From positions 1 to 64,000 of the forward strand of contig JAIPGM010000008.1 of assembly GCA_021735655.1 (NCBI GenBank): DNA of 64,000 bases, read 5' to 3'. Position 1 is the stretch's first letter; the number at the start of each line of letters is the position of its first letter. The notes beneath the pieces were generated by a model, which was not told the origin of the DNA, made no database searches, and saw nothing but the letters and a program-made list of their open reading frames with translations. Source of the stretch: Candidatus Omnitrophota bacterium. Lineage in GTDB: Bacteria > Omnitrophota > Gorgyraeia > Duberdicusellales > 4484-171. This document shows positions 42,243-63,873 of this stretch, piece by piece. The translations under genes and the position numbers were made by a program.

Positions 42243-42275
42243 GTTGCCAAAATTGCCCGCTCTCAAAAATGGCGG
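42243..42275. repeat. 33-bp perfect inverted repeat, right copy
   Basis: gttgccaaaattgcccgctctcaaaaatggcgg; with the left copy it brackets only the recombinase gene. Confidence 0.85.
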
Positions 42276-42456
42276 TGTATAGGGGACGCAGTCCGAACCT
42301 TTTATGCAGCCGAAGGTGGTATTTAATGCCTATGAATTCGGCTGCTGTCTCCCTTATCGGCCCACGTGGGCCGATAAGGCATCCCTGCGGCCTCTCCCTC
42401 GCAAAAATCTATATATTTTTAATGCGGCGGCGGAAAATTTTTTTATTTTTTGTAAA
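42273..42456. repeat. 184-bp structured repeat element, copy A
   Basis: About 93% identical to the reverse complement of 48970..49153; contains a perfect 14-bp hairpin CCTTATCGGCCCAC/GTGGGCCGATAAGG and a 9-bp stem GCAGCCGAA/TTCGGCTGC; differences concentrate in a loop. Confidence 0.8.
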
Positions 42457-44575: not shown

Positions 44576-45361
44576 TTATTCAAATTCAAGTCTCACAGAA
44601 GCTTTATCACATTTTTTATCACATTTATAACAATTACAATTAGAAGTGTACCACTCAATATTTTTTCGTTCTCCAGGTTTTAATGGCTCACTTCCGATAG
44701 CGTATGTATAATCAGTATTAACTACTTTACCATATTCATTTTTATAGGTAATATGAAATTTAACATTTGTTACTGGTATTTGCGAACCATTATAAATTGT
44801 AGCCTTGCCTTCTACGCTATTTGAGTAACTTGAACCAAACGACCAATCTTCAATTATAACTTTCTGTTTCGCTTCTTCAAGTAACTCATGTTTTTCCATA
44901 TCAGACTTTGAATCATCAGATATATTGTTAAGTTTGGCGTCCGCTACAAACCCATAACTGTCAGAAATCTGCCACTCTGAAAATTTTTTTCTGACGATAA
45001 AAATAGGCTTCCGTTCGAGCTTCATTCCAAAGGCGTTAATTGTCGAGCCATAAACTTGAATCCAATATTTATCCTTTTCTTTTTTTAATGTTTTTAATTT
45101 CCATTTCTCAATTTTAAAATAAGAATATTTTCCCACTAAAAATAGATTTATAGAATAACTCGTATCAAAATATTTTGAAATTTGTTCTAAATCTTGTTCA
45201 TTTAAATATTTTAAAGCAAGATTGACAGTCTTTTCTCCATTATTACTAAAGAGACTATCAATTCCTATTTTTATTGTTTCCCTATTAAAATACCCTAATA
45301 ATATAACAGCTAGTAAGAGAATAAAAATAACGATATGTTTAGCGCTTACATTAATTGTCAT
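44576..45361 (-). CDS. Membrane-anchored/secreted hypothetical protein with Cys-rich C-terminus
   Basis: N-terminal signal anchor; CNCYKCDKKCDK tail. Confidence 0.4.
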   Translation of the reverse strand: MTINVSAKHIVIFILLLAVILLGYFNRETIKIGIDSLFSNNGEKTVNLALKYLNEQDLEQISKYFDTSYSINLFLVGKYSYFKIEKWKLKTLKKEKDKYWIQVYGSTINAFGMKLERKPIFIVRKKFSEWQISDSYGFVADAKLNNISDDSKSDMEKHELLEEAKQKVIIEDWSFGSSYSNSVEGKATIYNGSQIPVTNVKFHITYKNEYGKVVNTDYTYAIGSEPLKPGERKNIEWYTSNCNCYKCDKKCDKASVRLEFE

Positions 45362-48969: not shown

Positions 48970-49153
48970 TTTACAAAAAATAAAAAAATTTTCCGCCGCC
49001 GCATTAAAAATATATAGATTTTTGCGAGGGAGAGGCCGCAGGGATGCCTTATCGGCCCACGTGGGCCGATAAGGAAGACAGCAGCCGAATTCATAGGCGT
49101 TAGCGAGCACCTTCGGCTGTGTAAAAGGTTCGGACTGCGTCCCCTATACACCG
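48970..49153. repeat. 184-bp structured repeat element, copy B (inverted), immediately upstream of pilin A
   Basis: See copy A; ends 58 bp before the ATG of the pilin gene at 49212. Confidence 0.8.
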
Positions 49154-49211
49154 TTTTTACATCTACCACCTACCTATTCCAAAACTAACTCAATAGTGAT
49201 ATAATCTAACT

Positions 49212-49760
49212 ATGAGAAGAGGATTTACCTTAATCGAACTAATCGTAGTCATTGCTATTATTGCTATCTTAGCAGCAATCATTGCCCCTAATGCTTTTAA
49301 GGCTATTGAGAAGGCGAAGGTCGCTAGAGCAATTTCGGATTTCAAAACAATAAAAACAGCCTCAATATCTCTTTACGCTGATACCGGAAAATGGCCTGAT
49401 ACGAATTGGGGTGATACCCGAATTAAAGATAGCGGTTTATTTATTGATAACGGAGCAAGTTGGGATGGTCCATATTTAGAGAAAAATCCTGAACCGCATC
49501 CTTGGGGAGGAAGGTATATATTTGAAAGTGAAGATGACTGGGCTAAAAGTCCCACAGAGCCTGCTAATGGAATTGATGAATCGCTTATTGATTTTGAAGA
49601 TTACTGTATTTCTGGATCTGCAACAGGCTGTCCTGTTCCAGATAGCGCAGCAAAGAGAATTGATGAAGCAGTAGACGACGGGAATACTTCCTGGGGCGAA
49701 TTTCGCCACGGTGGCGATACCTTGTGGCTTTTAGTCTGGGATGCTTTTGAGCAACCATAG
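49212..49760 (+). CDS. Type IV pilin / T2SS GspG-like pseudopilin (paralog A)
   Basis: Prepilin N-terminus MRRG|FTLIELIVVIAIIAILAAIIAPNAF with Glu+5; WDGPY, PWGG and DDG motifs as in GspG-type pilins. Confidence 0.7.
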   Translation: MRRGFTLIELIVVIAIIAILAAIIAPNAFKAIEKAKVARAISDFKTIKTASISLYADTGKWPDTNWGDTRIKDSGLFIDNGASWDGPYLEKNPEPHPWGGRYIFESEDDWAKSPTEPANGIDESLIDFEDYCISGSATGCPVPDSAAKRIDEAVDDGNTSWGEFRHGGDTLWLLVWDAFEQP

Positions 49761-49930
49761 TTTTTATTGAAGATTATTTGAATAGCGCTAATTAATTCTA
49801 TCTATAAATCAATTCAGCTGACCACTAATCCCCACCAACCCATTTTTCCCTTGTGCCCAAATTGTGCCTGTTTCGATTCAAGTCCTTGCAATTACTTGCC
49901 TTTGAACCTTTAGTTTGTTAAACTATTTAC

Positions 49931-51313
49931 ATGCGAAAAGTATTATTCCTACTTGCTTTATTGTTAGTATTTTCCCAGCTAGCCTATTCTGAAATCATTA
50001 CTTTAAAAAATGGTAAGACCATTGATGCTCCTATCTTAGAGAGGGCAGAGGAGTATATTAAGGTTAACATTGGAGGTGTTGGGGTTAAGTATTATATGGA
50101 TGAAATAGACAGCGTCGGAAAGGATAAAAGTTTATTTAAAAATAATTATTCAAAAAAAACACCTTCTGAAATTTATAATGAAAACGCAAGTGCTGTAGTA
50201 ATGGTCGGCGCTAAAGGTTTTTTTGACACAGGGTTTAGTATTGGCGTCGGTTCAGTAATTAGTCAGGATGGCTTAGTTGTTACAAATTATCATGTATTAG
50301 GTGATTCTAATGATGTATCGATCGCCTTTGATAATGGTTCAATTTCTAAAGCAATATCTGTGGCAACTTTTGACCCAATACGTGATTTCTGCATTTTAAA
50401 AGTTAAAGGCAGTGATTTGCAGGGTGTTGAACTTGGAGATAGCGATAATCTTAAGAAGGGTGAAGCCTTAACCGTCATAACTATTGACAGTAATGATAAG
50501 CATAAAATAATGACAGGAAAGTATCTTTATCAACTAGTTGACTTAGGTAGTCGTTATTTAATGGCCGAAATTCCAACTGGCGAAGAAGGAAATAGCGGTT
50601 CACCAGTTTTTAATGAATGCGGAAAGGTTATCGGAATTTACACAAGAGGAGATCCGGAATCAAATTTAGCAAGTATTATACCTATAAATGACATAAAAGA
50701 ATATTTAAATGTGGATAAAAATTTAACTATGCATGAATTTAAGAACCTTTCGGATCAAGCTGTAGTCCTATCAACTAAAGGAAAAGTTTTTATGTTGAGA
50801 GGGGAATACCAAAAGGCCTTGGATTATTTTTATCAGGCCTTAAGTATAAATCCAGAGTGTTCATTGGCAAGTTTGGTTCTTGCTCAAGTTTACATTAAAA
50901 TGCATGAATTTTATAAAGCAGCTAATGAAATAAACAAAATTATACAAAGGTTTCCTGATGAAGTGCACCATTATATGACAATTGCTGAAATTTATAGAAA
51001 AAATTTTATGTGGGATGATTTTTTGATAGCCGTTAACAAAGCTATAGAAGTTGATCCTAGGTATAGTGATGCATATGCAGAGCTTAGTCTGTATTATTAT
51101 ATAGTGGGAAAGAGTATTGATAGGGCAATTGTTGAGGCTAAAAAGTGTATAAGTTTTAAACCAAGCAATTGCACCGCTCTTACTATTTTAATAGAAATTT
51201 ATGGGCAAAAAAATGATTGCGTTTTAGTAAAAAAATACCGAAAACAAATGGAAGATTACGGGTGTGAGATTACTAAAGAAGAAACTATTCAGGCGATTCA
51301 GAGCTGTCGATAG
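49931..51313 (+). CDS. Secreted trypsin-like (S1/Trypsin_2) serine protease with C-terminal TPR repeats
   Basis: Signal peptide; TNYHVL (His), D, GNSGSPVF (Ser) catalytic motifs; about 5 TPR-like repeats after residue 270. Confidence 0.65.
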   Translation: MRKVLFLLALLLVFSQLAYSEIITLKNGKTIDAPILERAEEYIKVNIGGVGVKYYMDEIDSVGKDKSLFKNNYSKKTPSEIYNENASAVVMVGAKGFFDTGFSIGVGSVISQDGLVVTNYHVLGDSNDVSIAFDNGSISKAISVATFDPIRDFCILKVKGSDLQGVELGDSDNLKKGEALTVITIDSNDKHKIMTGKYLYQLVDLGSRYLMAEIPTGEEGNSGSPVFNECGKVIGIYTRGDPESNLASIIPINDIKEYLNVDKNLTMHEFKNLSDQAVVLSTKGKVFMLRGEYQKALDYFYQALSINPECSLASLVLAQVYIKMHEFYKAANEINKIIQRFPDEVHHYMTIAEIYRKNFMWDDFLIAVNKAIEVDPRYSDAYAELSLYYYIVGKSIDRAIVEAKKCISFKPSNCTALTILIEIYGQKNDCVLVKKYRKQMEDYGCEITKEETIQAIQSCR

Positions 51314-51529
51314 GTATTTATTATGTGTGCCCCAATCGTGCCCATCTAAAGCGAAACCACAGGATAATAGACGAAAGCAGAAGATAACAGGTAGAATCAT
51401 TTTTTTCCTAAAACTCACCGTCAACACTGCATAATCATTGATAAATAAAGAGTATTTAAATTACATCTAATAGAATCCCTGCTTTTTTGTTTTATATCTA
51501 CCATCTACCCTATTCCAAAATTATTCCAA

Positions 51530-52189
51530 GTGTGGTACAATCTAACCGTTGCAATAGAATTAGAATATAATTTAAAAATGTTTAAGAGTATTGTTAAAGA
51601 GTTAAGGCATCATGCTCCGTTTACTTTTTTAGGAGCTTTCTTGGGAATCGTTTTTATGTTTTTATTTCGTAATATTTCTCAGGAAGCTTCACATGATCTT
51701 TTTTATGTTTTTCACCCCCTACATGTATTATTAAGTGCTTTAGCTACAGCTTCAATGTATAAATTACATACTTGCCCCAAAGGTAAAGGCCCTTGCAATT
51801 TACCACTTTTGCTTGTAGTTGGTTATTTCGGTGCCATTGGCGTTGCCACTTTCAGTGATTCATTAATGCCTTATTTTGGGGAATTTTTACTGAAAATGCC
51901 TTATCGAGAAATGCATATAGGTTTTGTTGAGAAATGGTGGTTAGTGTCAGCGGTAGCAATAGTCGGTGTTATTATCGCTTGTTTTAATCCTTCGACAAAG
52001 TTTCCTCATGCGGCCCATGTATTGATTAGTACTTGGGCATCTTTGTTCCATATTATGATGGCTTCTGGCGGGAGTATTAGCTGGGTGGTGTATATTGGGA
52101 TATTTTTGTTTTTATTCCTTGCGGTGTGGCTTCCGTGTTGCATTAGTGATATCGTTTTCCCGCTTTTATTTGTAAAAAGAAAAACATAG
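51530..52189 (+). CDS. Polytopic membrane protein, hypothetical
   Basis: 5-6 TM helices; no recognised motif. Confidence 0.4.
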   Translation: MWYNLTVAIELEYNLKMFKSIVKELRHHAPFTFLGAFLGIVFMFLFRNISQEASHDLFYVFHPLHVLLSALATASMYKLHTCPKGKGPCNLPLLLVVGYFGAIGVATFSDSLMPYFGEFLLKMPYREMHIGFVEKWWLVSAVAIVGVIIACFNPSTKFPHAAHVLISTWASLFHIMMASGGSISWVVYIGIFLFLFLAVWLPCCISDIVFPLLFVKRKT

Positions 52190-52345
52190 CTCTTTCCCGT
52201 AAATAATTTCTATAATTAGTCAAGAAAAATCTTATAAATTTTGTAAATTTATAATTAAAAAAGTTTGCAAAGTTAGATTAATATTGTTAAAATATTCGAT
52301 CTTACGGAATTTATAAATTATTTTTTTAAAAAAAAGGGGGCCACG

Positions 52346-52858
52346 ATGAAAGATAGCTATCCATATTTCAGGGATCCGCGAGCTTTGGAAGAAATCAGAA
52401 AACATAAATGGATTGAAAGCCAAAAACAGAATCAGGAAGTCAGCTTTGCCACAGCTGCCTTAGATTGGATTAACAACTATGGTGCTCAGTGGAAAGAAAT
52501 TCATGCTGACGAGAGTAAGGATAATCGTATTTTTATTGAACAGAGGAAGTATCGCCGGTTCAGGTTAACTCAGCTTATTAAATTGGTGAAAGATAATATT
52601 ACTTTTTTAGCCGAAGGCATTAATATTAGTTTTTTTGGTTTGACTTGCCGGGCTAGAAAATTCTTACCGGTAGGTAGTGTGATGGATGTTTATGTGCCGA
52701 TTGAGCAGAAAAGCGGAGAAAAGATTATCTGCAGAGGCACAGTAGAGAGGGCTATCCAAGTTAAATTGGAAAATTATGAGGTATTTTTAAAGTTTGGTCC
52801 AGATTGTCAGAGGCAGATAGAAAATTGCGAATATTTTAGGGGCCAAGCGGCGGCATAA
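52346..52858 (+). CDS. PilZ-domain protein with N-terminal helical domain
   Basis: RKYRRFR (RxxxR) and NISFFG (NxSxxG) in the C-terminal half. Confidence 0.5.
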   Translation: MKDSYPYFRDPRALEEIRKHKWIESQKQNQEVSFATAALDWINNYGAQWKEIHADESKDNRIFIEQRKYRRFRLTQLIKLVKDNITFLAEGINISFFGLTCRARKFLPVGSVMDVYVPIEQKSGEKIICRGTVERAIQVKLENYEVFLKFGPDCQRQIENCEYFRGQAAA

Positions 52859-52926
52859 TAAAAAAAAGAAATTTCTTTTTTTTATTTTATTCGAAGCGGC
52901 ATTTTACTTGTAAAGTAAACCCTGTC

Positions 52927-54489
52927 GTGTTAAAATTTACCATCATGAAAGGCATTCTTTATTGTCGAGATATTTCTTCAAATAAATCAAAATCGCTCTT
53001 CTTTCCCCACAAAACCACCACTAAATTACAAGATGTCTATGCTTCTGACTGTCCTTTGGTCATTTTTGACGAAAAATTTATCAAAAAAAGTAAAAAGTTA
53101 GATAATTCGCGCCTTAAAAGTAAGGTTTGTTTTGTGCATTTTACCCAAGAGCATAAGGATAATTTAAAAATAGTTAAACAGCTTGGTTTTTTTGATTACT
53201 TTAGTGATCAAGATTCAAAGAGTTTTGTTTCTTTCAAGTTTCTAAGGGCCGAGAAGCTAATTAAACTTAATCGAAAGGTGTATAGCCTAGAGAAACAAGT
53301 TAATAAAAAAGATGCTGAAATCGAAAACATCACTTTGATCGATCCGATAACCGGGTGTTATAACTGGCGGTATCTTTCAAACCGGATAACTCAGGAAATT
53401 AATCGAGCTCGTCGACATTTCTACAGCATTTCTTTTATTGCTGTCGATATTGATCATTTTACCAGGATCAATGAACTCTATGGCGTAAAAGTAGCCGATA
53501 CGATTATTAAGGAATTTGTCGGTATTTTAGGCAAAGCATTGCGGACTGAGGACATTCTGGCCCGCTGGCGAGAGGATGAGTTTTTTATTATTGCGCCTCA
53601 CTTAGAAGCCAAAGATAGCTATATGGTTGCTAAAAGAATAGGCGAGAAAATTAGCACACATAAGTTTAAATATCATAAAGTTGCGATATGTCTAAAGGCT
53701 AGTTTAGGCGTTACCACTTCTCCTGAAGATCATATCTTTAGTGTTCGCGATATTGTTAATACTTTGAATGGTTGTTTAGCTTCGGCTAAACGGAAGGGGG
53801 GCAACACGATTGTTTTATATTCTCAGGCAGATACTACCTTGGCGCCGGAAAAGCACAAGAAGGCTAATACGTCTGAATTACAGGGTAAAATAGACAAGAT
53901 GAACAAGGTGATGAATCGAGATTTGCTTGATACTATTTATGGGTTTGCTAGGACAATCGAGGCAAAAGATTCTTACACCGGAAAACATGTAGAATATACT
54001 GCTGGTTTGGCCGAAGAAGTTGCAAAAGCCTTACGGTTATCAACCAAAGAAGTGGAAGATGTTAGGCATGCTGCGGTTTTGCATGATTTAGGAAAGATTG
54101 CTATCGATAAAAGCATTCTTTCTAAAGCAGGTAGCCTTAGTCCCGAAGAAAGGGAGTCGATTAGGACTCATCCGGCTATTGCTGCAGAGATTTTACGCGA
54201 GATACATGGTCTCAGAGGGGCTATCCCGGCGATTCTTTATCATCATGAGCGTTATGATGGAAAGGGCTATCCTTTGGGGTTAAAGGGCGATGATATACCT
54301 TTAAATGCTCGGATAGTTGCCGTTGCTGATGTCTATCAGGCGCTTATCTCTGATCGGCCGTATCGTAAAGCTTATGTTAAGAAAAAGGCTTTAGAGATTA
54401 TTAAATCAGAGGCTGGCAAACAGTTTGATCCTAAAATAGTAAGAATGTTTTTACGAATTATCAAGAGGATCGATGCGCAAGAAAGATGA
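52927..54489 (+). CDS. Degenerate GGDEF domain + HD-GYP phosphodiesterase
   Basis: GGDEF fold with RWREDEFFI in place of GG(D/E)EF; HD motif LHDLGKIAI; HHERYDGKGYPLGL HD-GYP signature. Confidence 0.7.
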   Translation: MLKFTIMKGILYCRDISSNKSKSLFFPHKTTTKLQDVYASDCPLVIFDEKFIKKSKKLDNSRLKSKVCFVHFTQEHKDNLKIVKQLGFFDYFSDQDSKSFVSFKFLRAEKLIKLNRKVYSLEKQVNKKDAEIENITLIDPITGCYNWRYLSNRITQEINRARRHFYSISFIAVDIDHFTRINELYGVKVADTIIKEFVGILGKALRTEDILARWREDEFFIIAPHLEAKDSYMVAKRIGEKISTHKFKYHKVAICLKASLGVTTSPEDHIFSVRDIVNTLNGCLASAKRKGGNTIVLYSQADTTLAPEKHKKANTSELQGKIDKMNKVMNRDLLDTIYGFARTIEAKDSYTGKHVEYTAGLAEEVAKALRLSTKEVEDVRHAAVLHDLGKIAIDKSILSKAGSLSPEERESIRTHPAIAAEILREIHGLRGAIPAILYHHERYDGKGYPLGLKGDDIPLNARIVAVADVYQALISDRPYRKAYVKKKALEIIKSEAGKQFDPKIVRMFLRIIKRIDAQER

Positions 54490-54931
54490 AGCCTACATGT
54501 ATGAAGCTCTCAAACAGGCTCACTATGCATTTGATGAAGATGAGGTGCCGGTGGGGGCAGTTATTGTTTGTAACGATAGAATAATCGCTAGAAGCTACAA
54601 CCAGGTCGAAAAATTAAAAGATCCTACCGCTCATGCTGAGATGATTGCTATTACTCAAGCGGCAAGTTTTTTAAAATCAAAGTGGCTTAAAAAATGTTCT
54701 TTGTATGTTACGATAGAGCCGTGTTCGATGTGTGCCGGAGCCTTAGTCTTAAGTCGCATCGATAAGGTTGTTTTTGGCGCAAAAGATCCAAAGACTGGAG
54801 CTTTCGGGTCAAAGCTAGATGTAAATGCCTTAAGTCTTAATCATAAGTTAAAAGTTAAAAATGGTATTTTGGAGAATGAATGTGCCATGATTTTACAGGA
54901 TTTTTTTAAAATTAAGAGGGAGACAAAATGA
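54473..54931 (+). CDS. tadA: tRNA-specific adenosine deaminase
   Basis: HAEMIAI and PCSMCAGAL zinc-binding deaminase motifs, ~150 aa. Confidence 0.85.
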   Translation: MRKKDEAYMYEALKQAHYAFDEDEVPVGAVIVCNDRIIARSYNQVEKLKDPTAHAEMIAITQAASFLKSKWLKKCSLYVTIEPCSMCAGALVLSRIDKVVFGAKDPKTGAFGSKLDVNALSLNHKLKVKNGILENECAMILQDFFKIKRETK

Positions 54932-55587
54932 GTATGAAGAGCCTTAGGGTAATTTTTATTACTATCGTAGTTTTTGTTTTTTCTTTAGAATATGCTCAAG
55001 CTCGTAACCGTCAGGGTGGCGGTAGCTCATCAGGCTCAGGTTATACTCCAAGAACTCGCACCAAGGTGAGTTCTCAGTCGTCACAAAAGAATAGCAATAA
55101 AGATAAGAGCAAAAGTGTTAATAAAGAAGAGGGGAGTGAATCTTTGAAGTGGGGAAAGTCAGATGATTCGATAAAGGTAAAGTCAAATCCTCAGCAGAAG
55201 GAAAATATACTAAAGCTTAAAGAAGATGCAAAAGCGATTAAAGATAAATCAAATATAACCCAAGATCAGAAGGATAAAATAAAGTCTGATTTTTCAGCTA
55301 TTATGGATGGCGCACAAAAACCCAGCGAGGAATCAGTTAATAATCTGGTTGGTGATCTTACCAGGGCAGCAGAAGACGGTAAGCTAGGCCCAAAGGAGGC
55401 TATGAAAATTTCTGAAAGTGTTTCTGGGGTTTTAGAGAGTGCAAATATATCTGAAGAAGAAGTTTGGGCGCTTAAAAAAGATGTTGAGGCTGTTGCTGAG
55501 GCCTCTAACCTTAATCAGCAAGACACAGACTTAATAATAGCTGACGTTGAGGCTATCATTGATACAGCTAGAGCTAATAGTAAGTAG
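54928..55587 (+). CDS. Secreted low-complexity (S/K/D/E-rich) hypothetical protein
   Basis: Signal peptide; internal imperfect repeats. Confidence 0.4.
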   Translation: MSMKSLRVIFITIVVFVFSLEYAQARNRQGGGSSSGSGYTPRTRTKVSSQSSQKNSNKDKSKSVNKEEGSESLKWGKSDDSIKVKSNPQQKENILKLKEDAKAIKDKSNITQDQKDKIKSDFSAIMDGAQKPSEESVNNLVGDLTRAAEDGKLGPKEAMKISESVSGVLESANISEEEVWALKKDVEAVAEASNLNQQDTDLIIADVEAIIDTARANSK

Positions 55588-55606
55588 TAAGTGTATGAGG
55601 TACCCT

Positions 55607-56176
55607 ATGAAAAAATCATTTACCCTAATCGAACTAATTGTAGTTATTGCAATCATTGCCATTCTTGCCGCAATCATCGCCCCAAATGCTTTTAAAGCTG
55701 TTGAGAAGGCGAAGATTTCTGAAGCAATAGCCGATGTTAAAACTTACAAAACTGCCATTGGTACCTTATATGCTGATACCGGACATTGGGTAGTAGAAGG
55801 CGCTGTTCCTCCCCTAGGTGACATTATCTATCCAGATTCTGCTAATAATGATTTAATAACTAATCTTAATGGTTATTTTGGTTGGGATGGACCTTATGTT
55901 CAAAAGATTAAAGCCAAAAATCCCTGGAAGGGTTGGTATGTTTTTCAATCTAATGATGTCGCAAGAGGTTTACAATCAGAAATTTGGCTTGATTTTGAAG
56001 ATGCTTGTTATCCGCTAGAGGGTAGTGTCAGCCTTGATTGCCCTATACCGGATAAAGCCAAAAATAAAATAGATGCTACCATTGACGATGGAGATCCCTC
56101 GGACGGAAATGTACAAGAAGGACTAGGAGGGTCAGCCGGTGATTTTTCTTGGTTTTTAGTTTGGGATGCATACTAA
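55607..56176 (+). CDS. Type IV pilin / GspG-like pseudopilin (paralog B)
   Basis: MKKS|FTLIELIVVIAIIAILAAIIAPNAF (Ser at -1), GWDGPY, NPWKGWY, KIDATIDDG; start placed at the internal Met of track ORF 55547. Confidence 0.7.
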   Translation: MKKSFTLIELIVVIAIIAILAAIIAPNAFKAVEKAKISEAIADVKTYKTAIGTLYADTGHWVVEGAVPPLGDIIYPDSANNDLITNLNGYFGWDGPYVQKIKAKNPWKGWYVFQSNDVARGLQSEIWLDFEDACYPLEGSVSLDCPIPDKAKNKIDATIDDGDPSDGNVQEGLGGSAGDFSWFLVWDAY

Positions 56177-56224
56177 GTTGTAACTACCTAACGGTTAATC
56201 TACTTTCTAACCTCTTTGCGAAAT

Positions 56225-56510
56225 TTATCAAAAATGCTATGATTAAAAATCATTAATAGAGGGGGGTGCCGAGCTCGGTTTAAGGCGGCGGTTTGCTAAA
56301 CCTTTTCGACTCTTTTTCAATAAACTTAATCCTTTTTCAATTTATCCTCTAAAATATTAACTTTTCATACTTATTGCTGTTTGTAGGAATTTTGTATGCT
56401 TATATCTGTTTGACTATTTTTTGGACACCGACCCCCATCCCTTCCAATTTGGTCGCAGATATAGTTATAAGGACTGTTTTTGGTGCCTGAATTAGATTTT
56501 GGGAAGCCCG
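56225..56510 (+). repeat. ~290-bp direct repeat unit R1: tRNA-type promoter + 5' fragment of tRNA-Ser(GCU) + conserved leader
   Basis: Shares TATGATT -10, the first ~44 nt of the tRNA at 58750 (gaggggggtgccgagctcggtttaaggcggcggtttgctaaacc) and ~200 bp of downstream sequence with R2. Confidence 0.75.
56259..56302 (+). pseudogene. Truncated tRNA-Ser(GCU) 5' fragment (acceptor to anticodon arm only)
   Basis: Near-identical to 58750..58793 but diverges after the anticodon stem; no T-arm or CCA. Confidence 0.7.
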
Positions 56511-56595
56511 TTCTGAAACCGTTTTTACAAAGAGGCATTTTTGCTGTTATAGTGGTCCTTTTTAGGTGTTATACTTTAATGATAGGTTTAATTGT

Positions 56596-57297
56596 ATGAA
56601 GAAAAATATTTTTTCCTTAATAATTTACCTTTGTTTGTCTTTGGCTTCGGTAACGGTTTATGCTGGTCCTTTTGAGAAATTGACTAGTAGTGGAAGACCA
56701 TCCGTTAACTCAGGCCAAAATAAGTCAACTCAAGCATCACATCCACCTGCCAGAAGTAATCGTTTACTTGAAAGGAGTTCAACAAAAGCACAAAGTCCAA
56801 AAACAGCAATTAAGGTAAAAGGAGGCTTGGGGGGTTCTAGTTTTAGGCATACAGTTCAGGAAGGGCTTAATAAAGTATCTAAAGTGCATCCGGAATTGCT
56901 CGATGCGAAGGGTGTTGTCATACTTCGTGAGAAACTAGAGCCTGGCGAAGCTATGCGGGCCTATACTGCGGAGAATTTAATAGCTGTGTCACCCCGAACC
57001 GCTTCGGAAGATAATAAGTACCTTTTTGCTGCAGCTTTGGGGCATGAGTTAGATCACGTATTAAATCCTCAAAAAGGTGAGGTTTTAGATCAACAGGGAC
57101 GCATAAAACTGAAAGTGGCGGTAGCTATGGAAAAACGAGCTATCGGCAAGGAAATAGATATTCTTTCTGCGTACTTAGAAGTAGCCAGTAAAAAAGACCG
57201 TGAGATAATGCAACTGCGGATAAATTTCCTGAAAGCTGCGGATGGGACGCATAATAAGGAAAGGTATGAAAGGCTTGGCATTCCTTTTGTCGATTAG
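56596..57297 (+). CDS. Secreted protein with HExxH (GHELDH) zinc-metallopeptidase-like motif
   Basis: Signal peptide from the internal Met (MKKNIFS..VYA); HELDH motif; otherwise unrecognised. Confidence 0.4.
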   Translation: MKKNIFSLIIYLCLSLASVTVYAGPFEKLTSSGRPSVNSGQNKSTQASHPPARSNRLLERSSTKAQSPKTAIKVKGGLGGSSFRHTVQEGLNKVSKVHPELLDAKGVVILREKLEPGEAMRAYTAENLIAVSPRTASEDNKYLFAAALGHELDHVLNPQKGEVLDQQGRIKLKVAVAMEKRAIGKEIDILSAYLEVASKKDREIMQLRINFLKAADGTHNKERYERLGIPFVD

Positions 57298-57404
57298 CGG
57301 TAATGTAAAATAAGTCTGACTTTATTTTTTTCTGACCCTCATCCCAATTGACACATTTTTCTTATTCGACCAATTCCTATCAAAGTAGTATCTATTTTCT
57401 TTTC

Positions 57405-57715
57405 AAAACTTACCAAAAATGCTATAATTAAAAATCATTAATAGATGAGGGGTGGCCGAGCTCGGTTTAAGGCGGCGGTTTGCTAAACCTCCATAGTCCT
57501 TTTTCAATAACCCAATAAATTCAATCCTTTTTTAATTTATCTTCTAAAGTATTAACTTTTTATACTTACCGCTGTTTGTAGGAATCTTGCATGTTTGTAT
57601 CTGTTTGGCTATTTTTTGGACATTTTCTGGTCACCGACCCTTACTCTTTCTGACTTGGTTATGGGTATAGTTATAAGGGCTATTTTCGGCACTTGAAGTA
57701 AATTTTGGAAAAATC
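57405..57715 (+). repeat. ~310-bp direct repeat unit R2 (second promoter + tRNA-Ser 5' fragment + leader), immediately upstream of pilin C
   Basis: Also shares ~70 bp upstream of the promoter (aattgacacattt...atcaaagta) with the intact tRNA-Ser(GCU) locus at 58640. Confidence 0.75.
57447..57489 (+). pseudogene. Truncated tRNA-Ser(GCU) 5' fragment
   Basis: gaggggtggccgagctcggtttaaggcggcggtttgctaaacc then divergence. Confidence 0.7.
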
Positions 57716-57752
57716 TATTTTTAGTGGTAAAATATTCCAAAGGAGGTATTTT

Positions 57753-58337
57753 ATGAAAAAATCATTTACTTTAATCGAGTTAATCGTAGTAATCGCTATA
57801 ATTGCTATCTTAGCAGCAATCATCGCTCCCAATGCATTTAAGGCTATTGATAAAGCAAAAGTTTCAGCTAGCCTGGCTTATGCAAAGAACATAAAAACAG
57901 CAATTTTGTCTTTGTATTCCGATACTGGGCATTTTTCGGGATGGGTGGCCGGCATGACGGCTGGTCAATATAATTATGTGAAACTTGACGATGATTATAA
58001 CCCTAGTTGGCAGCCTAGCAATTTATTGAGTGATGAATCTGGTTGGACTGGTTGGGATGGTCCCTATATGGAGCAACTGACAGGTCGACATCGATGGGGC
58101 GGAACTATCATGCTTCTCTATTATCCTATTCCAGCATCTTGGGCTAATGGTCTTGGTCTTTATCGTTGGTTTCCGTGCTATGGGAATTCAGCTAATAATT
58201 GTGGAGTATCTGAGACGAATTTAAAGAAAATAGATGCTACCGTAGATGATGGTGTACCTACCACTGGTAACCATAGAGTCTATTATGACGCCACGTATTC
58301 ACAATGGTATTCGCTAGAAACGTTAATTAACTTCTAA
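57753..58337 (+). CDS. Type IV pilin / GspG-like pseudopilin (paralog C)
   Basis: MKKS|FTLIELIVVIAIIAILAAIIAPNAF, GWDGPY, RWGG, KIDATVDDG; start at the internal Met of track ORF 57705. Confidence 0.7.
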   Translation: MKKSFTLIELIVVIAIIAILAAIIAPNAFKAIDKAKVSASLAYAKNIKTAILSLYSDTGHFSGWVAGMTAGQYNYVKLDDDYNPSWQPSNLLSDESGWTGWDGPYMEQLTGRHRWGGTIMLLYYPIPASWANGLGLYRWFPCYGNSANNCGVSETNLKKIDATVDDGVPTTGNHRVYYDATYSQWYSLETLINF

Positions 58338-58409
58338 TGATAGGTTCAGTCGATAGCGGTAAAGAGGAAAATATAGGTTTTTGTTTAATAACTAGGGGAG
58401 ATTGTTAAC

Positions 58410-58535
58410 ATGAGAATATTTTTATTATTAGCTATAGTTGCGATAATGGCTTGTTCTTCGCAAGATAAGAGGTCACCGGTGGATCAATTAGAACCAGAGC
58501 TCATTGACCCTGCGGCTGGGCTTGACAATATGTAA
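58410..58535 (+). CDS. Possible 41-aa lipoprotein (below the ORF-track size cut-off)
   Basis: MRIFLLLAIVAIMAC-SSQ lipobox-type signal, GGGGAG RBS 8 nt upstream. Confidence 0.3.
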   Translation: MRIFLLLAIVAIMACSSQDKRSPVDQLEPELIDPAAGLDNM

Positions 58536-58699
58536 CCTTAGAATAACATTAAAGGTATGATGTCTTTAATGAACCAACGGTTTCTTTATACCTTCTTTTT
58601 AACTATAGTATTAAAGATATTTTAGGAAAACTTTTTAGCCTAATTGACACATTCTTTTCTATTTGACCAAGTCTTATCAAAGTATGATCCATCTTCTAA

Positions 58700-58735
58700 A
58701 TTCTTTCCAAAATTAACCAAAAATGTTATAATTGA
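58700..58735 (+). promoter_or_regulatory. Promoter of tRNA-Ser(GCU)
   Basis: TATAAT at 58726..58731, 18 nt before the tRNA 5' end, AT-rich upstream; the same promoter block is duplicated in R1 and R2. Confidence 0.45.
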
Positions 58736-58749
58736 AAATCATTAATAGA

Positions 58750-58845
58750 GGAGGGGTGGCCGAGCTCGGTTTAAGGCGGCGGTTTGCTAAACCGTTGTAC
58801 AGGTGAAAACCCGTACCTGGGGTTCAAATCCCCACCCCTCCGCCA
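58750..58845 (+). tRNA. tRNA-Ser (anticodon GCU), class II
   Basis: Acceptor GGAGGGG/CCCCTCC, anticodon stem GCGGT/ACCGT with loop TTGCTAA, long variable-arm hairpin, T-arm TGGGG-TTCAAAT-CCCCA, encoded CCA. Confidence 0.8.
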
Positions 58846-58861
58846 GTTTTATAATAAATAA

Positions 58862-59818
58862 ATGGAAATACTACTTAATAGCCTAATTTTTATAGTCGGT
58901 CTTGCTATATTAATAATCAGCTCTGACTGGCTTATCCAGGGTTCAATTAAATTATCTAGCCTTCTAAGATTAACCCCTTTATTTGTAGGATTAGTTCTAG
59001 TCGCTTTTGGTACATCTACTCCTGAAGCTGGAGTTGGAATAGTCGCCGCCATAAGAAATTATAAAGAGATAGCCTTGGGCAATGTTATCGGAAGCAATAT
59101 TTGCAATATTGGGTTGATTTTGGGTCTATGTGCTTTCGTTAGGCCGTTAAAGATAAATAAGTCTATTCTTAGAAGAGAGTTTCCCTTTATGCTTCTTGCT
59201 ACGGTTTCACTTTTTTTAATGAGTCGGGATTTATTAATTAGCCGGCTTGACGGATTAATATTTATATTTGGCTTTATTGCTTTTTTAGTTTTTTCATATA
59301 AAGGAGCAAGGCAGTCTTTTATCGGCGATGAGATAAATAATTTTAAATTTAAAGGTTTGTTTAAGAGATACAATTCACCTATTGCAATCACCGTTTTATC
59401 GCTAATTTCAATTTTAGGCATAGCTATTGGAGCAAAGCTTATGGTTGATAAAGGAGTGGTCTTAGCAAATATTTTTGGGGTGAAGCCTTGGTTGATTGCA
59501 ATTACTGTTTTTGCCGTTGGCACTTCGCTTCCTGAATTAGCGGCATCATTGACTGCGGCTTTGAAGAAAGCGCCTTCAATTAGTGTTGGCAATATCGTCG
59601 GAAGCAATATTTTTAACATTTTACTGATTTTAGGGGTGGTTTCTTTAATCAGACCGATACAGCTAGAGGCTTCAATGCTAAAGTTTGAATTTCCGGTTTT
59701 GCTTATTTTTAGCTTTACCCTTCTTATCATGATGAAAACTAGGCACCAAATAAGCCGTTGGGAAGGGCTGTCGTTATTTTTAGGCTATATTGGTTTTATT
59801 TTTTTATTGATTCACTAA
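58862..59818 (+). CDS. Na+/Ca2+ exchanger-family (CaCA, YrbG-like) membrane protein
   Basis: Two alpha-repeats GTSTPEAGV and GTSLPELAA, GNVIGSNI motifs, ~10 TM helices. Confidence 0.8.
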   Translation: MEILLNSLIFIVGLAILIISSDWLIQGSIKLSSLLRLTPLFVGLVLVAFGTSTPEAGVGIVAAIRNYKEIALGNVIGSNICNIGLILGLCAFVRPLKINKSILRREFPFMLLATVSLFLMSRDLLISRLDGLIFIFGFIAFLVFSYKGARQSFIGDEINNFKFKGLFKRYNSPIAITVLSLISILGIAIGAKLMVDKGVVLANIFGVKPWLIAITVFAVGTSLPELAASLTAALKKAPSISVGNIVGSNIFNILLILGVVSLIRPIQLEASMLKFEFPVLLIFSFTLLIMMKTRHQISRWEGLSLFLGYIGFIFLLIH

Positions 59819-59845
59819 TTTATAATAACCAAAAGGAGGTAGCGG

Positions 59846-60406
59846 ATGTTAGGAGGTATATTGATATTTTTAGGAGTTTTAGTGTTTTTGGTCGTTATCT
59901 GGGTTATCGGTTCTTATAACGGCGTAATAACTTTAAGAAATAGTGTGGATAATGCTTGGGCTCAAATCGATGTCCAGCTTACCCGGAGACATGATCTTAT
60001 ACCTAATTTGGTAAAAACGGCTAAAGGTTACCTAACTCATGAAAAAGAAACCCTTGAGAATGTAATAAAGGCCCGTACTCAGGCAACTCAGGCTACCGCA
60101 GTTAAAGACAAACAGGCGGCCGAGAACTTTTTAACCAGCACCCTGCGCTCTTTATTTGCTGTTGTTGAGCGATATCCTGATCTTAAGGCTAATCAGAGCA
60201 TGCTCAAGCTTCATGAAGAGATAACTTCAACTGAAAACCGGATTGCTTTTGCCCGGCAGTTTTACAATGATGAGACAATGAGGCACAATACCTTAATTCA
60301 GCAATTTCCGGTTAATTTAATTGCCAGTAGTTTTAACTTTAGCAATAAAGAGTTATTCGAAATCGAGGATACGTCTCACAAGGAAGTTCCCGAAGTAAAT
60401 CTTTAA
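59846..60406 (+). CDS. LemA-family membrane protein
   Basis: N-terminal TM helix then YNGVITLRNSVDNAWAQIDVQLTRRHDLIPNLV, characteristic of LemA. Confidence 0.8.
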   Translation: MLGGILIFLGVLVFLVVIWVIGSYNGVITLRNSVDNAWAQIDVQLTRRHDLIPNLVKTAKGYLTHEKETLENVIKARTQATQATAVKDKQAAENFLTSTLRSLFAVVERYPDLKANQSMLKLHEEITSTENRIAFARQFYNDETMRHNTLIQQFPVNLIASSFNFSNKELFEIEDTSHKEVPEVNL

Positions 60407-60421
60407 TTTTCTTACCTAAAA

Positions 60422-62059
60422 ATGGCCTATTCATTTATCCAGATCGAGAGGGAGAAATCCCGTTTTATCTTCGTTCTGATTGCCATCCTGATAGCTATCT
60501 ACTTTTTTACCTCTTGGACAGTATGGTTTTTTGTTAAAAACTACTACCGCTATCGGTTTTATAGCGAAGCCCAAACTGGTCTATATATCCCTACTTTGAT
60601 TGAAACCGGCATTGTTTTTTTAATTGCTCTTTCAGCGGCATTATTGCATTTTTACATTTCAACCGCTGATATGCTGGTTAGATCATTTGAGGTTTTAGGA
60701 GCAAAGCCTTTGGATTTAAACTATTCCAAGCATCGGATGCTCAGAAATATAATTGATGAGGTTTCGATAGCTATGGGTGGGGTTAGTATCAACGGTTGTG
60801 TGGTTAATAGTGCCAGTTGCAATGCTTTTACGATTAGTAATTTTAGCGGTTTTGCCTACATCGGTGTAACTGAAGGTTTACTTTCTAAGTTAAATCGCAG
60901 CCAGTTAGAAGCTGTAATTGGCCATGAGGCAGCTCACATCGTGAGAGGAGATACCCAGATAGTTACGACTGCCTGTTCAGTTTTCGGGATTTATGAAGGC
61001 TTAATGGTTGGGATAAGAGAGAGTGTTTTAAGAGTAAGGAGCTCAGCAGCCCTGCTTGGAGTTTTTATTTATTTGATTTTATCTATTGTCCATATTCTTA
61101 ATAAGATAATCGTGTCTTCTATTTCTAAACAGAAAGAATTTCGAGCTGATGCGGTTGCGGTTAAACTTACCCGTGATCCATTAGCTTTGGCTCAGAGTCT
61201 ATATATTATTTCAAAGCGTTGGCATGGTGAGAATACAAAGGTCGTTGGACTGTCCTCGTTGTTTATTGTTAGTCCAGTTGGCTCAAGCCTTAGTGGTTTT
61301 TCAACTCATCCTCCGATAGAGGAAAGAATCGGTATATTGTTGAATATGGCTCATGCTGACAAATCTGCTCTTGAGAGCATGGTTAACAATCTAAAACCAG
61401 AAATTAAGGCTGCCCGTAGGGATTTTAAGCAGATGGCTAAGAAAAGTAAACTTTTAAAAAATCATGAAAGCTGGTTTGCCTTTAAGGATCAGAGTTGGCA
61501 AGGTCCTTTTTTATTTGTAGAGCTTGCGTCTCTTGGGTGGCTTAAACCGGATCATTTAATTCGTCGCCACGGTGCAATCCAAGCAAAACCAGCCTATGAG
61601 GATAGTAGATTAATGCCTTTATTTAGGCCGCACGAGGATCAGCTACACAGCCGTTTTTCTTGTCCTTACTGCTATCACGGATTAGATGCAACTAAATATG
61701 AAGGGGCAGATGTCTATAAGTGCTATCTTTGTAAGGGTAGGCTTCTTACAAGAGATGAATTAAATAAGGTATTAATTAGAGAAGATCGGGATTTTTCTCA
61801 AGATATTATTTCGCAGGCCGAGCTAGCCTTAGCTGAGAAAAAAGAGCGTTTTAAGCGTATTCGAGAAATAAAAACTCCTTTGGTAATAAATTGTCCGAAT
61901 TGTTTTCGAAAAATGCGCCGTAAACTTTTTAGTCATTATGCTCCGGTTGAGGTGGATGAGTGTGGTTGGTGCGCTAGCATATGGCTTGACTATGATGAGC
62001 TTGAGATAATTCAGTCTATCTATGATCGACTTCCCAATAAAGACCAGATAATATATTAG
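60422..62059 (+). CDS. Membrane zinc metallopeptidase (M48/HtpX-like HExxH) with two C-terminal zinc-ribbon modules
   Basis: TM helices; VIGHEAAHIVRGD (HExxH); CPYCYHG...CYLCKG and CPNCFRK...CGWC ribbons; LemA neighbour is a common pairing. Confidence 0.55.
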   Translation: MAYSFIQIEREKSRFIFVLIAILIAIYFFTSWTVWFFVKNYYRYRFYSEAQTGLYIPTLIETGIVFLIALSAALLHFYISTADMLVRSFEVLGAKPLDLNYSKHRMLRNIIDEVSIAMGGVSINGCVVNSASCNAFTISNFSGFAYIGVTEGLLSKLNRSQLEAVIGHEAAHIVRGDTQIVTTACSVFGIYEGLMVGIRESVLRVRSSAALLGVFIYLILSIVHILNKIIVSSISKQKEFRADAVAVKLTRDPLALAQSLYIISKRWHGENTKVVGLSSLFIVSPVGSSLSGFSTHPPIEERIGILLNMAHADKSALESMVNNLKPEIKAARRDFKQMAKKSKLLKNHESWFAFKDQSWQGPFLFVELASLGWLKPDHLIRRHGAIQAKPAYEDSRLMPLFRPHEDQLHSRFSCPYCYHGLDATKYEGADVYKCYLCKGRLLTRDELNKVLIREDRDFSQDIISQAELALAEKKERFKRIREIKTPLVINCPNCFRKMRRKLFSHYAPVEVDECGWCASIWLDYDELEIIQSIYDRLPNKDQIIY

Positions 62060-62145
62060 TTATTTTAAATGTTAAGTTCAGTTGACTTAAAGATAATATC
62101 AAGGTATACTAATTTCGCTTTTTTAAACTAACCTTTAATACAATC

Positions 62146-63873
62146 ATGGAGTATTTAGCTTTTGCTTTAAAATATCGGCCGCAAAACTTTGAACAAGTTA
62201 TCGGCCAAGAGCACATTGTTGTTTCTTTGCGAAACGCAATCCTAAAAGATCGAGTTTCTCACGCCTATATTTTTAGCGGTCCCCGAGGAATCGGTAAAAC
62301 TTCTCTAGCCCGAATTTTTGCAAAATCTTTAAACTGTGCCGAAGGCCCAACAGCTAAGCCTTGTGGAAAGTGCCCAAGTTGTTTAGCGATTACTAAGGGT
62401 AAGTCTTTAGATATCATCGAAATAGATGGGGCCTCAAACCGAGGCATAGACGAGATAAGAACCTTAAGAGAGAATGTAAAGCTTTCTCCGGCCGGATCAA
62501 GATATAAGATTTATATTATCGATGAAGTTCACATGCTTACCCAAGAGGCTTTTAATGCTCTTTTAAAGACCTTGGAGGAGCCGCCGCCACATGTAAAATT
62601 TATCTTTGCAACTACCCATCCACATAAAATATTACCAACGATTCTTTCGCGTTGTCAAAAGTTCCAGTTTAACCTTATTGCTTTAGAGAATATTGTTGCT
62701 AAGTTAAGAATAATTGCTAAAAGCGAGAAGATCAAAATTGAGGATAGTCTTTTATATACGATTGGCCGGGCCGCTGCCGGAAGTATAAGAGATGCTGAGA
62801 GCTTGTTTGATCAGCTGGCACCGGTAGTGCTTGAGAAAGGCTCGCTCAAAGATGTTTTTTCCTTTTTAGGAATAATTGATGAGGAAAGTTTAAATAAAGC
62901 ACTTAAGGCACTTTTAGATAAAGATATTGAGAGTTGTTTAGAGTTTATCGATCGATTAGCTAAAGATGGGAAAGATTTAGGAATATTTTTAAATGCTTTC
63001 ATTGAACATTTACGCAATTTACTTTTAGCTAAGGTAAGTTCGAGGACTTTTCAGGATTTAAGTGATGTTTCTCCCCAGAGTAAGGATTTTATTATTGAGC
63101 TTGCAAAGACAATTACAACTTTTGAAGTTTTAAGGGCGATTGATCTACTTATTGAAGCAAAGGATATTTCAAAGCGTCTTAACACGGTGAGAATTCCTTT
63201 GGAGTTAGCCTTAATAAGGTATTCGCATCAAGAAGAGTCAGAAGAGGTCCAGCCTCAAGCTCCTAAAAAAATCAATAAGCCTGATTTGCCTAAGAGCAAT
63301 GAGCCTCCGAACTCGACGATAGAAGGCTTAGATAGTATAGATTTTGAGGATGACGATGAACCGGTAAAGAGTAACAGCCAGGATGACAAGAAAGAAGACA
63401 TAATGGATATCGATCAAGACGATGCCCCACAGGATAATACTTTATTGCAGCCAATGTTGACTAAATGGCAGCAGATGATTGCTTATATGCAGAAAAAAAG
63501 AGCAGCCATTGCTTCGCATCTTACTTTTGCTCAGCCGATATCTTCTAAGGGTCGTTGCGTAACAATTGCTTTTTCACCGGCTGACTATTTTCATAAAGAG
63601 ATCGTTGAAAGCGCTAAGAATGTAAAGTTTATCGAAGCGGCAATTGCACATTTTATTAGTCAATCTCCGGGGGTAAAATTTATTCTTCGAGATCTTCCAG
63701 ATAGACCGAAGATTAAATCGGCTCCCGATTTAGCTGAAAGCGAAAATAGTAAACAAAACACTGATGGTAGCGAAAAAGCGAAACCTTCCCAAGCAGTTTC
63801 CGGGGATGATGATGCTTTTTTAAACAATCTTTTAGATACTTTTGACGGAAAATTTCACAGTGAGGATCAATGA
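62146..63873 (+). CDS. dnaX: DNA polymerase III subunit gamma/tau
   Basis: LKYRPQNFEQVIGQEHI, GPRGIGKTS Walker A, IIDEVHML Walker B, SRC motif, acidic low-complexity C-terminus. Confidence 0.9.
   Translation: MEYLAFALKYRPQNFEQVIGQEHIVVSLRNAILKDRVSHAYIFSGPRGIGKTSLARIFAKSLNCAEGPTAKPCGKCPSCLAITKGKSLDIIEIDGASNRGIDEIRTLRENVKLSPAGSRYKIYIIDEVHMLTQEAFNALLKTLEEPPPHVKFIFATTHPHKILPTILSRCQKFQFNLIALENIVAKLRIIAKSEKIKIEDSLLYTIGRAAAGSIRDAESLFDQLAPVVLEKGSLKDVFSFLGIIDEESLNKALKALLDKDIESCLEFIDRLAKDGKDLGIFLNAFIEHLRNLLLAKVSSRTFQDLSDVSPQSKDFIIELAKTITTFEVLRAIDLLIEAKDISKRLNTVRIPLELALIRYSHQEESEEVQPQAPKKINKPDLPKSNEPPNSTIEGLDSIDFEDDDEPVKSNSQDDKKEDIMDIDQDDAPQDNTLLQPMLTKWQQMIAYMQKKRAAIASHLTFAQPISSKGRCVTIAFSPADYFHKEIVESAKNVKFIEAAIAHFISQSPGVKFILRDLPDRPKIKSAPDLAESENSKQNTDGSEKAKPSQAVSGDDDAFLNNLLDTFDGKFHSEDQ

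Follow-up and report, generated by a model that had tools for sequence, protein, structure and literature searches.

The stretch analysed here, called the window throughout, covers 64 kb (contig JAIPGM010000008.1, positions 1 to 64,000) of a Candidatus Omnitrophota metagenome-assembled genome (MAG), and our subject is the region around its tRNA-Ser(GCU) gene. One intact tRNA-Ser(GCU) lies at 58750-58845 on the plus strand; it was called by ARAGORN and scores 53.7 bits with the Rfam tRNA model. Repeat finding, MAFFT alignment and BLAST revealed that the promoter and the 5' part of this gene are present as three direct copies, all on the plus strand. The first, R1 (56198-56302; -10 element TATGAT), contains 42 nt of the tRNA (56261-56302), and the second, R2 (about 57336-57489; -10 element TATAAT), contains 44 nt (57446-57489). 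The third, R3 (about 58639-58793 onward), is the intact locus, the sole copy that continues into the whole tRNA, and the two 5' fragments are upstream of the tRNA by 1.3 and 2.5 kb. R1 and R2 are each followed by a leader, the two leaders being homologous (56318-56505 and 57513-57711; 88% identity over the best 110 nt, 73-77% overall), and the genes after the two leaders are unrelated to each other. The elements of the repeats, with the pilin gene that precedes them, are as follows.

55607-56176, plus strand: pilin B, prepilin-type (Pfam N_methyl), just upstream of the R1 promoter copy.
56198-56260, plus strand: P1, a displaced copy of the tRNA promoter, TTGCGA-16-TATGAT with TG at 56216-56243; ~80% identical to P2, P3 and the promoter of L064, a related contig described below.
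56261-56302, plus strand: frag1, 5' part of tRNA-Ser(GCU), 42 nt, ending in ...GCTAAACC; 42/44 identical to the intact 5' half.
57336-57445, plus strand: up2 and P2, a copy of the upstream region and promoter, TTTTCA-17-TATAAT with TG at 57400-57428; homologous to L064 9769-9891.
57446-57489, plus strand: frag2, 5' part of tRNA-Ser(GCU), 44 nt, ending in ...GCTAAACC; 43/44 identical to the intact 5' half.
58639-58749, plus strand: up3 and P3, the promoter now driving the tRNA, TTTCCA-17-TATAAT with TG at 58704-58732.
58750-58845, plus strand: the intact tRNA-Ser(GCU) (ARAGORN, Rfam), with the putative recombination site in the anticodon stem-loop at ~58776-58793.

BLAST E-values between the promoter/5'-half copies range from 1e-30 to 1e-70, so that the matches are far beyond chance. 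An exact block of 34-35 nt, GCCGAGCTCGGTTTAAGGCGGCGGTTTGCTAAACC, is common to R1, R2 and the intact locus, and the homology of all three copies stops at the identical base, after ...GCTAAACC. This breakpoint follows tRNA position 41, 3 nt past the 7-nt anticodon loop, in the 3' strand of the anticodon stem. The original prediction, made on this DNA alone, had described two direct repeats consisting of a tRNA promoter, a ~44-nt 5' half and a ~200-bp leader, placed directly 5' of an HExxH open reading frame (ORF; 56596-57297) and of pilin C (57753-58337), and our analysis bears out each of these elements. It had also held that R2 copies ~70 bp above the tRNA promoter; R2 (57336/57343-57387) and the intact locus (58639-58686) do share additional upstream sequence that R1 lacks, but its length is only ~45-55 nt. 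BLAST found no further copies of the unit or of the leader elsewhere in the window. Older, decayed 5' fragments did not rise above shuffle level between tadA and R1, inside the inserted units, or in the related contigs L064, L002 and L045.

Two Candidatus Omnitrophota MAGs were hit when the GTDB genomes were scanned for exact matches to the tRNA 5' half, and syntenic loci were found by scanning metagenomes for a tRNA 26-mer, followed by BLAST. The 74-kb JGI contig L064 is syntenic with positions 39-64 kb of the window at ~76% nucleotide identity. Its genes run from tadA through those for a 278-aa protein, a PilB/PilZ ATPase and two pilins to an upstream region with promoter (9769-9891) clearly homologous to that of the window, followed by tRNA-Ser(GCU), an antiporter, LemA, an M48 peptidase and DnaX. 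Two further contigs, L066 and L065, have the same arrangement over the same 39-64 kb, again at ~76% nucleotide identity. All three contain a single promoter-tRNA copy, with no leader and no second promoter/5'-half copy. In L054, which is 82% identical to the window at the nucleotide level over the GGDEF/HD and tadA genes, as well as in L042, L006, L009 and L055, the distance from the tadA stop codon to the tRNA is 55-125 bp. The relatives with one promoter-tRNA copy therefore indicate that the order pilin, promoter, tRNA is the single-copy state in the clade. Judged from these alignments, the window differs from the L064-type state in that two additional units separate the promoter/5' half from the 3' half. 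Pilin B was probably part of the locus before the insertions, as L064 likewise has a pilin directly before the promoter and tRNA.

Across Omnitrophota, the stretch from tadA to tRNA-Ser(GCU) behaves as a variable hotspot, as seen in the window (54931-58750) and in L054, L042, L006, L009, L055, L052, L002, L045 and L064. Its length is 55-270 bp in six relatives, ~2 kb in L002 (with a PilZ protein and small ORFs), ~4.3 kb in L045, ~3.9 kb in L064 (PilB ATPase and two pilins) and 3.8 kb in the window. The promoter region common to the window and L064 bears no relation to the native upstream sequence of L054 and L042. Another Omnitrophota contig, L045, contains a different 5'-side duplication at tRNA-Ser(GCU) (4640-5135), in which a native-type upstream hairpin region and the first ~10-20 nt of the tRNA are repeated 448 bp upstream, with a small GIY-YIG nuclease gene (4785-5054) between the copies.

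The two extra units of the window, which we call cassettes A and B, are composed as follows.

56303-57489, plus strand: cassette A, 1187 bp, consisting of leader1, the HExxH ORF, up2, P2 and frag2; its limits are the homology breaks, and it is absent in relatives.
57490-58793, plus strand: cassette B, 1304 bp, consisting of leader2, pilin C, a 41-aa ORF, up3, P3 and the undamaged 5' half; absent in relatives.
56303-56595, plus strand: leader1, a candidate attachment-site (att) arm; the part conserved with leader2 is 56318-56505.
57490-57752, plus strand: leader2; conserved part 57513-57711.
56596-57297, plus strand: cargo of cassette A, a 233-aa orphan ORF with a hydrophobic, signal-like N-terminal segment and an HELDH motif.
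57753-58337, plus strand: cargo of cassette B, pilin C, with a prepilin-type N-terminal methylation domain (Pfam N_methyl).
58410-58535, plus strand: a 41-aa ORF with a lipoprotein-like signal (…AIMAC/SS) predicted from sequence, without family matches; a possible second cargo gene of cassette B.

The ends of the two cassettes are homologous (leaders 73-88%, up, promoter and fragment segments 80-98%), whereas their cargo is not, an orphan ORF in the one and a pilin with a lipoprotein-like ORF in the other. Neither cassette contains a trace of a recombinase gene or has room for one, the cargo ORFs being all that they encode. The HELDH motif was read directly in the translation of 56596-57297, and homology searches for this ORF retrieved only itself among 5.8 billion clusters and 1.84 billion representatives, the latter searched exhaustively with phmmer. 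It belongs to no Pfam, NCBIfam or PHROG family, and its single-sequence AlphaFold model is unusable (mean confidence score, pLDDT, 41). Pilin C, on the other hand, has more than 1300 homologues in Omnitrophota, the nearest at 58% (P0003); pilin B, pilin C and the L064 pilin are 39-47% identical in all pairs, a range that is uninformative on orthology. The GC content of the cassettes, 31-42% against 37% for the genome, gives no signal of foreign composition.

Within the window, a 27-nt match is the only significant similarity of the leader, and no related locus shows any, which fits imported DNA; exact patterns and BLAST found no homologue in the collections searched. The 27-nt match joins the end of leader2, including the proximal -10 of pilin C (57711-57737), to 45123-45149 on the minus strand at 26/27 identity (BLAST E 3e-6), inside an AT-rich ORF of the recombinase island described at the end of this text. 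Three other views of the leader were rejected or led little further. Read as coding sequence on the plus strand, the two leaders have a short peptide-like stretch in common, yet a start codon is missing and an 11-nt indel breaks the frame; the ORFs of the minus strand matched no family. Compared with the upstream and promoter region, of which it might have been a decayed copy, the leader gives local alignments whose scores do not exceed those of shuffled sequences. The motif C[GT]GTTTG occurs once in the anticodon stem and twice in each leader; given that the leaders are homologous and the DNA is AT-rich, its possible role as an arm-type repeat is only a lead.

In the 62-nt promoter segment that precedes the tRNA start, all pairs among R1, R2, R3 and L064 are 79-81% identical, so that the three copies in one genome are as far apart as two species. 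The tRNA parts of the copies are 93-98% identical, with 73% for the leaders in the same comparison, and the difference between tRNA part and flank is significant by Fisher's test (p = 0.003 for R1-R2, p = 0.0003 for R2-R3). The 5' half that is joined to the 3' half is undamaged. In frag2, the change of G1 to T would unpair the first acceptor base pair, and frag1 has an indel and a substitution in the acceptor/D region. Since the damage grows with distance from the intact gene, the farther copies are the older ones. This pattern fits 5' halves that were kept under selection in separate cassette lineages and that would decay only once displaced by the next arrival, because each 5' half must rebuild a working tRNA on integration and would thus be kept functional in its own lineage.

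The same data bear on a local origin of the repeats, by which a single ancestral rearrangement would have been followed by unequal crossing-over that duplicated the unit, with later replacement of the cargo in one copy and drift. Truncated units with the same breakpoint and a homologous leader are what descent from one unit would give, direct repeats of ~100 bp are able to support unequal crossing-over, and neither an integrase nor another family member was found. However, the unrelated cargo calls for an extra replacement event, and the identity of 93-98% in the non-functional fragments versus ~80% in the flanks, which neutral drift of a local duplicate would not produce, would need gene conversion confined to 44 nt. 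The promoter and leader copies have diverged by 20-27%, a species-level distance, yet L064 and L066 are single-copy. As far as the alignments can tell, this divergence does not fit a recent local duplication, and an old one should also show in L064. We therefore regard a local duplication as unlikely.

The breakpoint at the anticodon stem-loop, together with the precedents for 5'-fragment islands and tandem arrays discussed below, leads us to propose that two integrase-less cassettes integrated serially at the anticodon stem-loop of tRNA-Ser(GCU), with a reversed polarity that restores the 5' side of the gene. We consider this account probable, if far from certain. The original prediction had named unusual recombination into the 5' part of the tRNA gene as its second alternative, and this alternative is the one favoured by the single-copy relatives, the anticodon breakpoint, the conserved ends around unrelated cargo and the species-level divergence. 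A contig from a GC-rich organism, L016, offers a parallel: at 323-364, a sigma-70-like promoter and a tRNA-Ser(GCU) 5' half break off after the same ...GCTAAACC, and unrelated DNA comes next. We count this break at an identical nucleotide in an unrelated contig, suggestive as it is, for integration; a phage origin there has the support of one ORF with a weak PHROG match.

The right end of each cassette comprises the upstream region, the tRNA promoter and the part of the tRNA that reaches to the anticodon stem, and the left end is the ~200-nt leader. In the circular intermediate of the proposed mechanism, both ends would be contiguous and form an attP-like segment of ~400 bp. A site-specific crossover in the anticodon stem-loop would then join the promoter and 5' half of the cassette to the resident 3' half, leaving the tRNA functional, and the previous promoter and 5' half would be pushed upstream, to decay there. 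An element that replaces the 5' side of a tRNA gene has to bring a promoter, and both cassettes do. P1 and frag1, behind pilin B, would be the resident copy; cassette A, with the HExxH orphan, would have arrived next, followed by cassette B, with pilin C and the small lipoprotein-like ORF. After each arrival, the displaced tRNA promoter would face the leader and cargo of the cassette that followed, and it may contribute to the expression of that cargo. The recombinase might have acted in trans or have been lost by decay, and the cassettes would accordingly be either satellites served in trans by a helper element or decayed elements of the kind termed cis-mobilizable elements (CIMEs).

Several observations weigh against serial integration. 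Among the window ORFs of at least 180 aa with a Pfam match, and among the leader ORFs, none was identified as a tyrosine integrase, and several window ORFs (e.g. those of 524 and 1068 aa) matched no Pfam family at all. The sole recombinase found in the window is a large serine recombinase (LSR; 40541-42109), which lies at the other tRNA-Ser. A role for it as the recombinase of the cassettes is not supported: its flanking repeats are at the 3' end of that other tRNA-Ser and have nothing in common with the cassette ends. An integrase-bearing element with the same att specificity was found neither in the window nor in the related loci examined, and neither an excision product nor a cassette-free strain was observed. 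The JGI metagenomes, viral contigs, phages and plasmids yielded no third member of the cassette family in searches by exact pattern or BLAST, which have limited sensitivity. A scan of the JGI metagenomes for TTTGCTAAACC-N55-85-GCTGTTTGTAGG gave 0 matches, two leader patterns gave 82 chance 15-mer matches without extended similarity and 0 matches, respectively, in the viral contigs, and in the BLAST searches of phages and plasmids only the pilin N-terminus matched. The cassette family thus consists of two copies in one genome. Furthermore, R1 lacks the ~55-nt upstream segment common to L064, R2 and R3, and its status as the resident copy is inferred for that reason. Lastly, the order of cassette A before cassette B depends on the MAG assembly.

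This dependence raises the question of whether the locus is an assembly artefact or strain chimera, with cassettes A and B derived from different strains or from extrachromosomal circles and chained through the 34-35-nt block. An independent k-mer assembly, the Logan assembly of SRR12088349, contains 100% the same sequence in pieces that end inside this shared block: L152 corresponds to 49240-56297, L058 to 56274-57476 and L001 to 58764-63856. The position of these ends is compatible with false chaining, as is the fact that no Logan contig with cassette B was retrieved. Nevertheless, the exact block is shorter than a normal read and copy-specific bases lie within 10 nt on each side, so that the order can be resolved. 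Every piece also starts and ends in the tRNA 5' half, and the cassettes therefore sit at tRNA-Ser(GCU) in any case. The only undamaged 5' half is the one assembled onto the 3' half, as expected for the right order. The damage gradient supports the last position for cassette B, and any path through the pieces keeps both cassettes at tRNA-Ser(GCU). We consider a chimera highly improbable, and cassette insertion at the anticodon stem would stand even if the cassettes stemmed from different strains.

The leading idea of the original prediction was a different one, namely a selected regulatory module: a promoter, 5' half and leader of ~300-400 bp copied before genes for strong expression or for a leader RNA resembling a tRNA half, with an integration origin being incidental or absent. 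In line with this, both displaced copies, which read in the same direction as the genes, have kept their -35 element and a good -10 element of the TGnTATAAT type, no terminator-like site lies between the displaced promoters and the cargo genes, and outside the tRNA no part is better conserved across all copies and L064 than the proximal promoter core. The module would nonetheless leave the break exactly at the anticodon stem unexplained. The fragments lack the 3' half, and hence the acceptor and T arms, and have acquired damaging changes as well. A promoter-like site lies nearer to the start of each cargo gene (56524-56553 and 57705-57733), the pilins of the relatives lack the unit, and BLAST did not find it in front of the other genes of the window, pilins A and B included. 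A structured RNA or riboswitch in the leader was rejected, as the Rfam search retrieved nothing but the tRNA and neither leader shows a stable or conserved fold, both folding no better than shuffled sequence (z +0.59 for leader1, +1.04 for leader2). We thus consider a selected module very unlikely; read-through of the cargo from the displaced promoters is possible as a consequence of the insertions, going by the promoter motifs, and might even belong to the way in which such cassettes function.

Islands of reversed target polarity, which leave 5' tRNA gene (tDNA) fragments, were reportedly described by Zhao and Williams in 2002 (J Bacteriol 184:859), as cited by others. The statement in the original prediction that integrase scars usually leave 3' tRNA fragments is correct, although 5' fragments have already been documented (PMC4383910, PMC6563490). 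The anticodon loop with its symmetrical stem is among the usual att positions: in the Islander collection, 2083 of 3919 islands are anticodon-centred, 159 of the 3919 leave a 5' tDNA fragment, and 125 tandem arrays were counted (PMC4383910). 5'-distal recombination has been called 'considerably less frequent' (PMC6563490). The locus in the window has a cognate, same-orientation tDNA fragment, with the 5' fragment upstream of the gene, a breakpoint at the anticodon and absence in relatives, features by which Islander recognizes such islands. Like the documented 5'-fragment islands, it combines an intact tDNA with direct 5' fragments upstream, an anticodon break, a gene part supplied by the element and empty sites in relatives. 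Unlike them, the cassettes are only 1.19 and 1.30 kb long, hold one or two cargo genes, have no integrase that we could find, and carry ~110 nt of upstream region with the tRNA promoter as well as a common non-tRNA arm of ~200 nt. Islander requires a tyrosine integrase and a length of 2-200 kb (PMC4383910), and the cassettes, at 1187 and 1304 bp, lie below this range. The 2014 Islander paper stated that only tyrosine integrases were then known to target tDNAs (PMC4383910).

A second comparison is with CIMEs, which are described as att-flanked elements without integration or transfer genes that stand in tandem at a target gene (Pavlovic 2004, Bellanger 2011, reviewed in PMC5704250). Newer arrivals in tandem accretion integrate at the att site that holds the gene end (PMC5704250). 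The cassettes likewise have att-like flanks, each being bounded by the promoter and 5'-half repeats, lack recombination and transfer genes, and stand in tandem at their target gene. The CIMEs so described, however, are decayed integrative and conjugative elements (ICEs) or integrative and mobilizable elements (IMEs) at the 3' end of the target, with a cognate integrase in a neighbouring element, whereas the locus here has 5' polarity, shows no partner element, and contains two units that are similarly minimal. The tycheposon arrays of Prochlorococcus are also similar, in that successive integrations occur at one tRNA with partial tRNA copies between them, older elements are pushed deeper into the island, and cargo-only remnants stay (bioRxiv 10.1101/2020.12.28.424599). 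Tycheposons differ in spanning several kb and in having their own tyrosine recombinases and replication modules, none of which is found in the cassettes.

Integron cassettes and pdif (Xer) modules are small, promoter-dependent units of one or two genes that are stacked without a recombinase of their own. By analogy, the cassettes of the window are small, stacked cargo units that could be expressed from a resident promoter upstream of the array. Their ends, however, are tRNA-promoter repeats rather than the imperfect palindromes typical of attC. No tyrosine recombinase and no IntI, attC, attI or dif-like 11-6-11 site is found here, and the cassettes bring a promoter and a gene fragment with them. 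Membership in the integron/pdif class is not supported. A wider proposal is that Omnitrophota possess a so far undescribed integron-like cassette system, in which recombinase-less circles with one or two surface or secreted genes, a tRNA promoter and a 5' half would be stacked by a recombinase in trans at the anticodon stem-loop, each insertion donating a promoter to the tRNA and a displaced strong tRNA promoter to the cargo. We consider such a system quite unlikely.

Integration into a tDNA that leaves 5' fragments, here in tandem, is documented, though rare. What is unusual in the present case, relative to the documented 5'-fragment islands, is the 1.2-1.3 kb form in which no integrase was found, the promoter that is carried along, the pilin and secreted-protein cargo, and the occurrence in a little-studied phylum. 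If serial integration is correct, the reversed, 5'-restoring mode of tRNA-gene integration would be usable by tiny, recombinase-free, single-gene cassettes, which must carry the promoter for the tRNA that they repair. As island finders require an integrase and at least 2 kb, units of this sort are missed by design, and the class could be under-counted. Pili are believed to attach Omnitrophota to host cells (PMC10066038). One route to surface variation would be a tRNA-linked site at which pilin and secreted-protein genes accumulate, and an integron-like system, if it existed, would mean shuffling of pilins and secreted effectors in host-dependent nanobacteria. If the locus is instead a one-off scar, it would be an ordinary, though uncommon, footprint of mobile DNA.

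The LSR belongs to a separate island of ~10.9 kb (40676-~51550), located directly after tRNA-Ser(GGA); between the same flanking genes, L064 has ~520 bp of unrelated sequence. Besides the LSR, the island encodes a ClpP/SDH-like protease, a HEPN protein, an Mrr endonuclease, an XRE regulator, pilin A (49212-49760) and a trypsin/TPR protease. The tRNA-Ser(GGA) gene (40585-40675) was called by ARAGORN and falls below the Rfam tRNA gathering score in the whole-window scan. The LSR ORF, on the minus strand, runs antisense through this entire gene. A perfect inverted repeat of 33 nt (40670-40702 and 42243-42275) brackets the LSR, its left arm overlapping the tRNA 3' end. The same geometry is seen at tRNA-Ser(GCU) in L045 (5126-6929), where a 63%-identical LSR is accompanied by an inverted copy of its C-terminal coding region, and L059 contains a third LSR, with a tRNA-like 3' fragment at its end.

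Two further repeats were noted in this island. An inverted repeat of 184 nt (42273-42456 and 48970-49153), 96% complementary, GC-rich and containing the palindrome CCTTATCGGCCCACGTGGGCCGATAAGG, encloses 6.5 kb of the island. Its left arm abuts the repeat of the LSR, its right arm stops 60 nt before pilin A, and it has no Rfam match; it could mark an invertible segment or represent two copies of a small element. A promoter-like direct repeat of 53 nt (49173-49225 and 51509-51561; 72% identity) brackets pilin A and the trypsin/TPR protease, and its right copy lies at the boundary where homology to L064 resumes. This repeat would be the mark of a second pilin-bearing block in the window flanked by a duplicated promoter.

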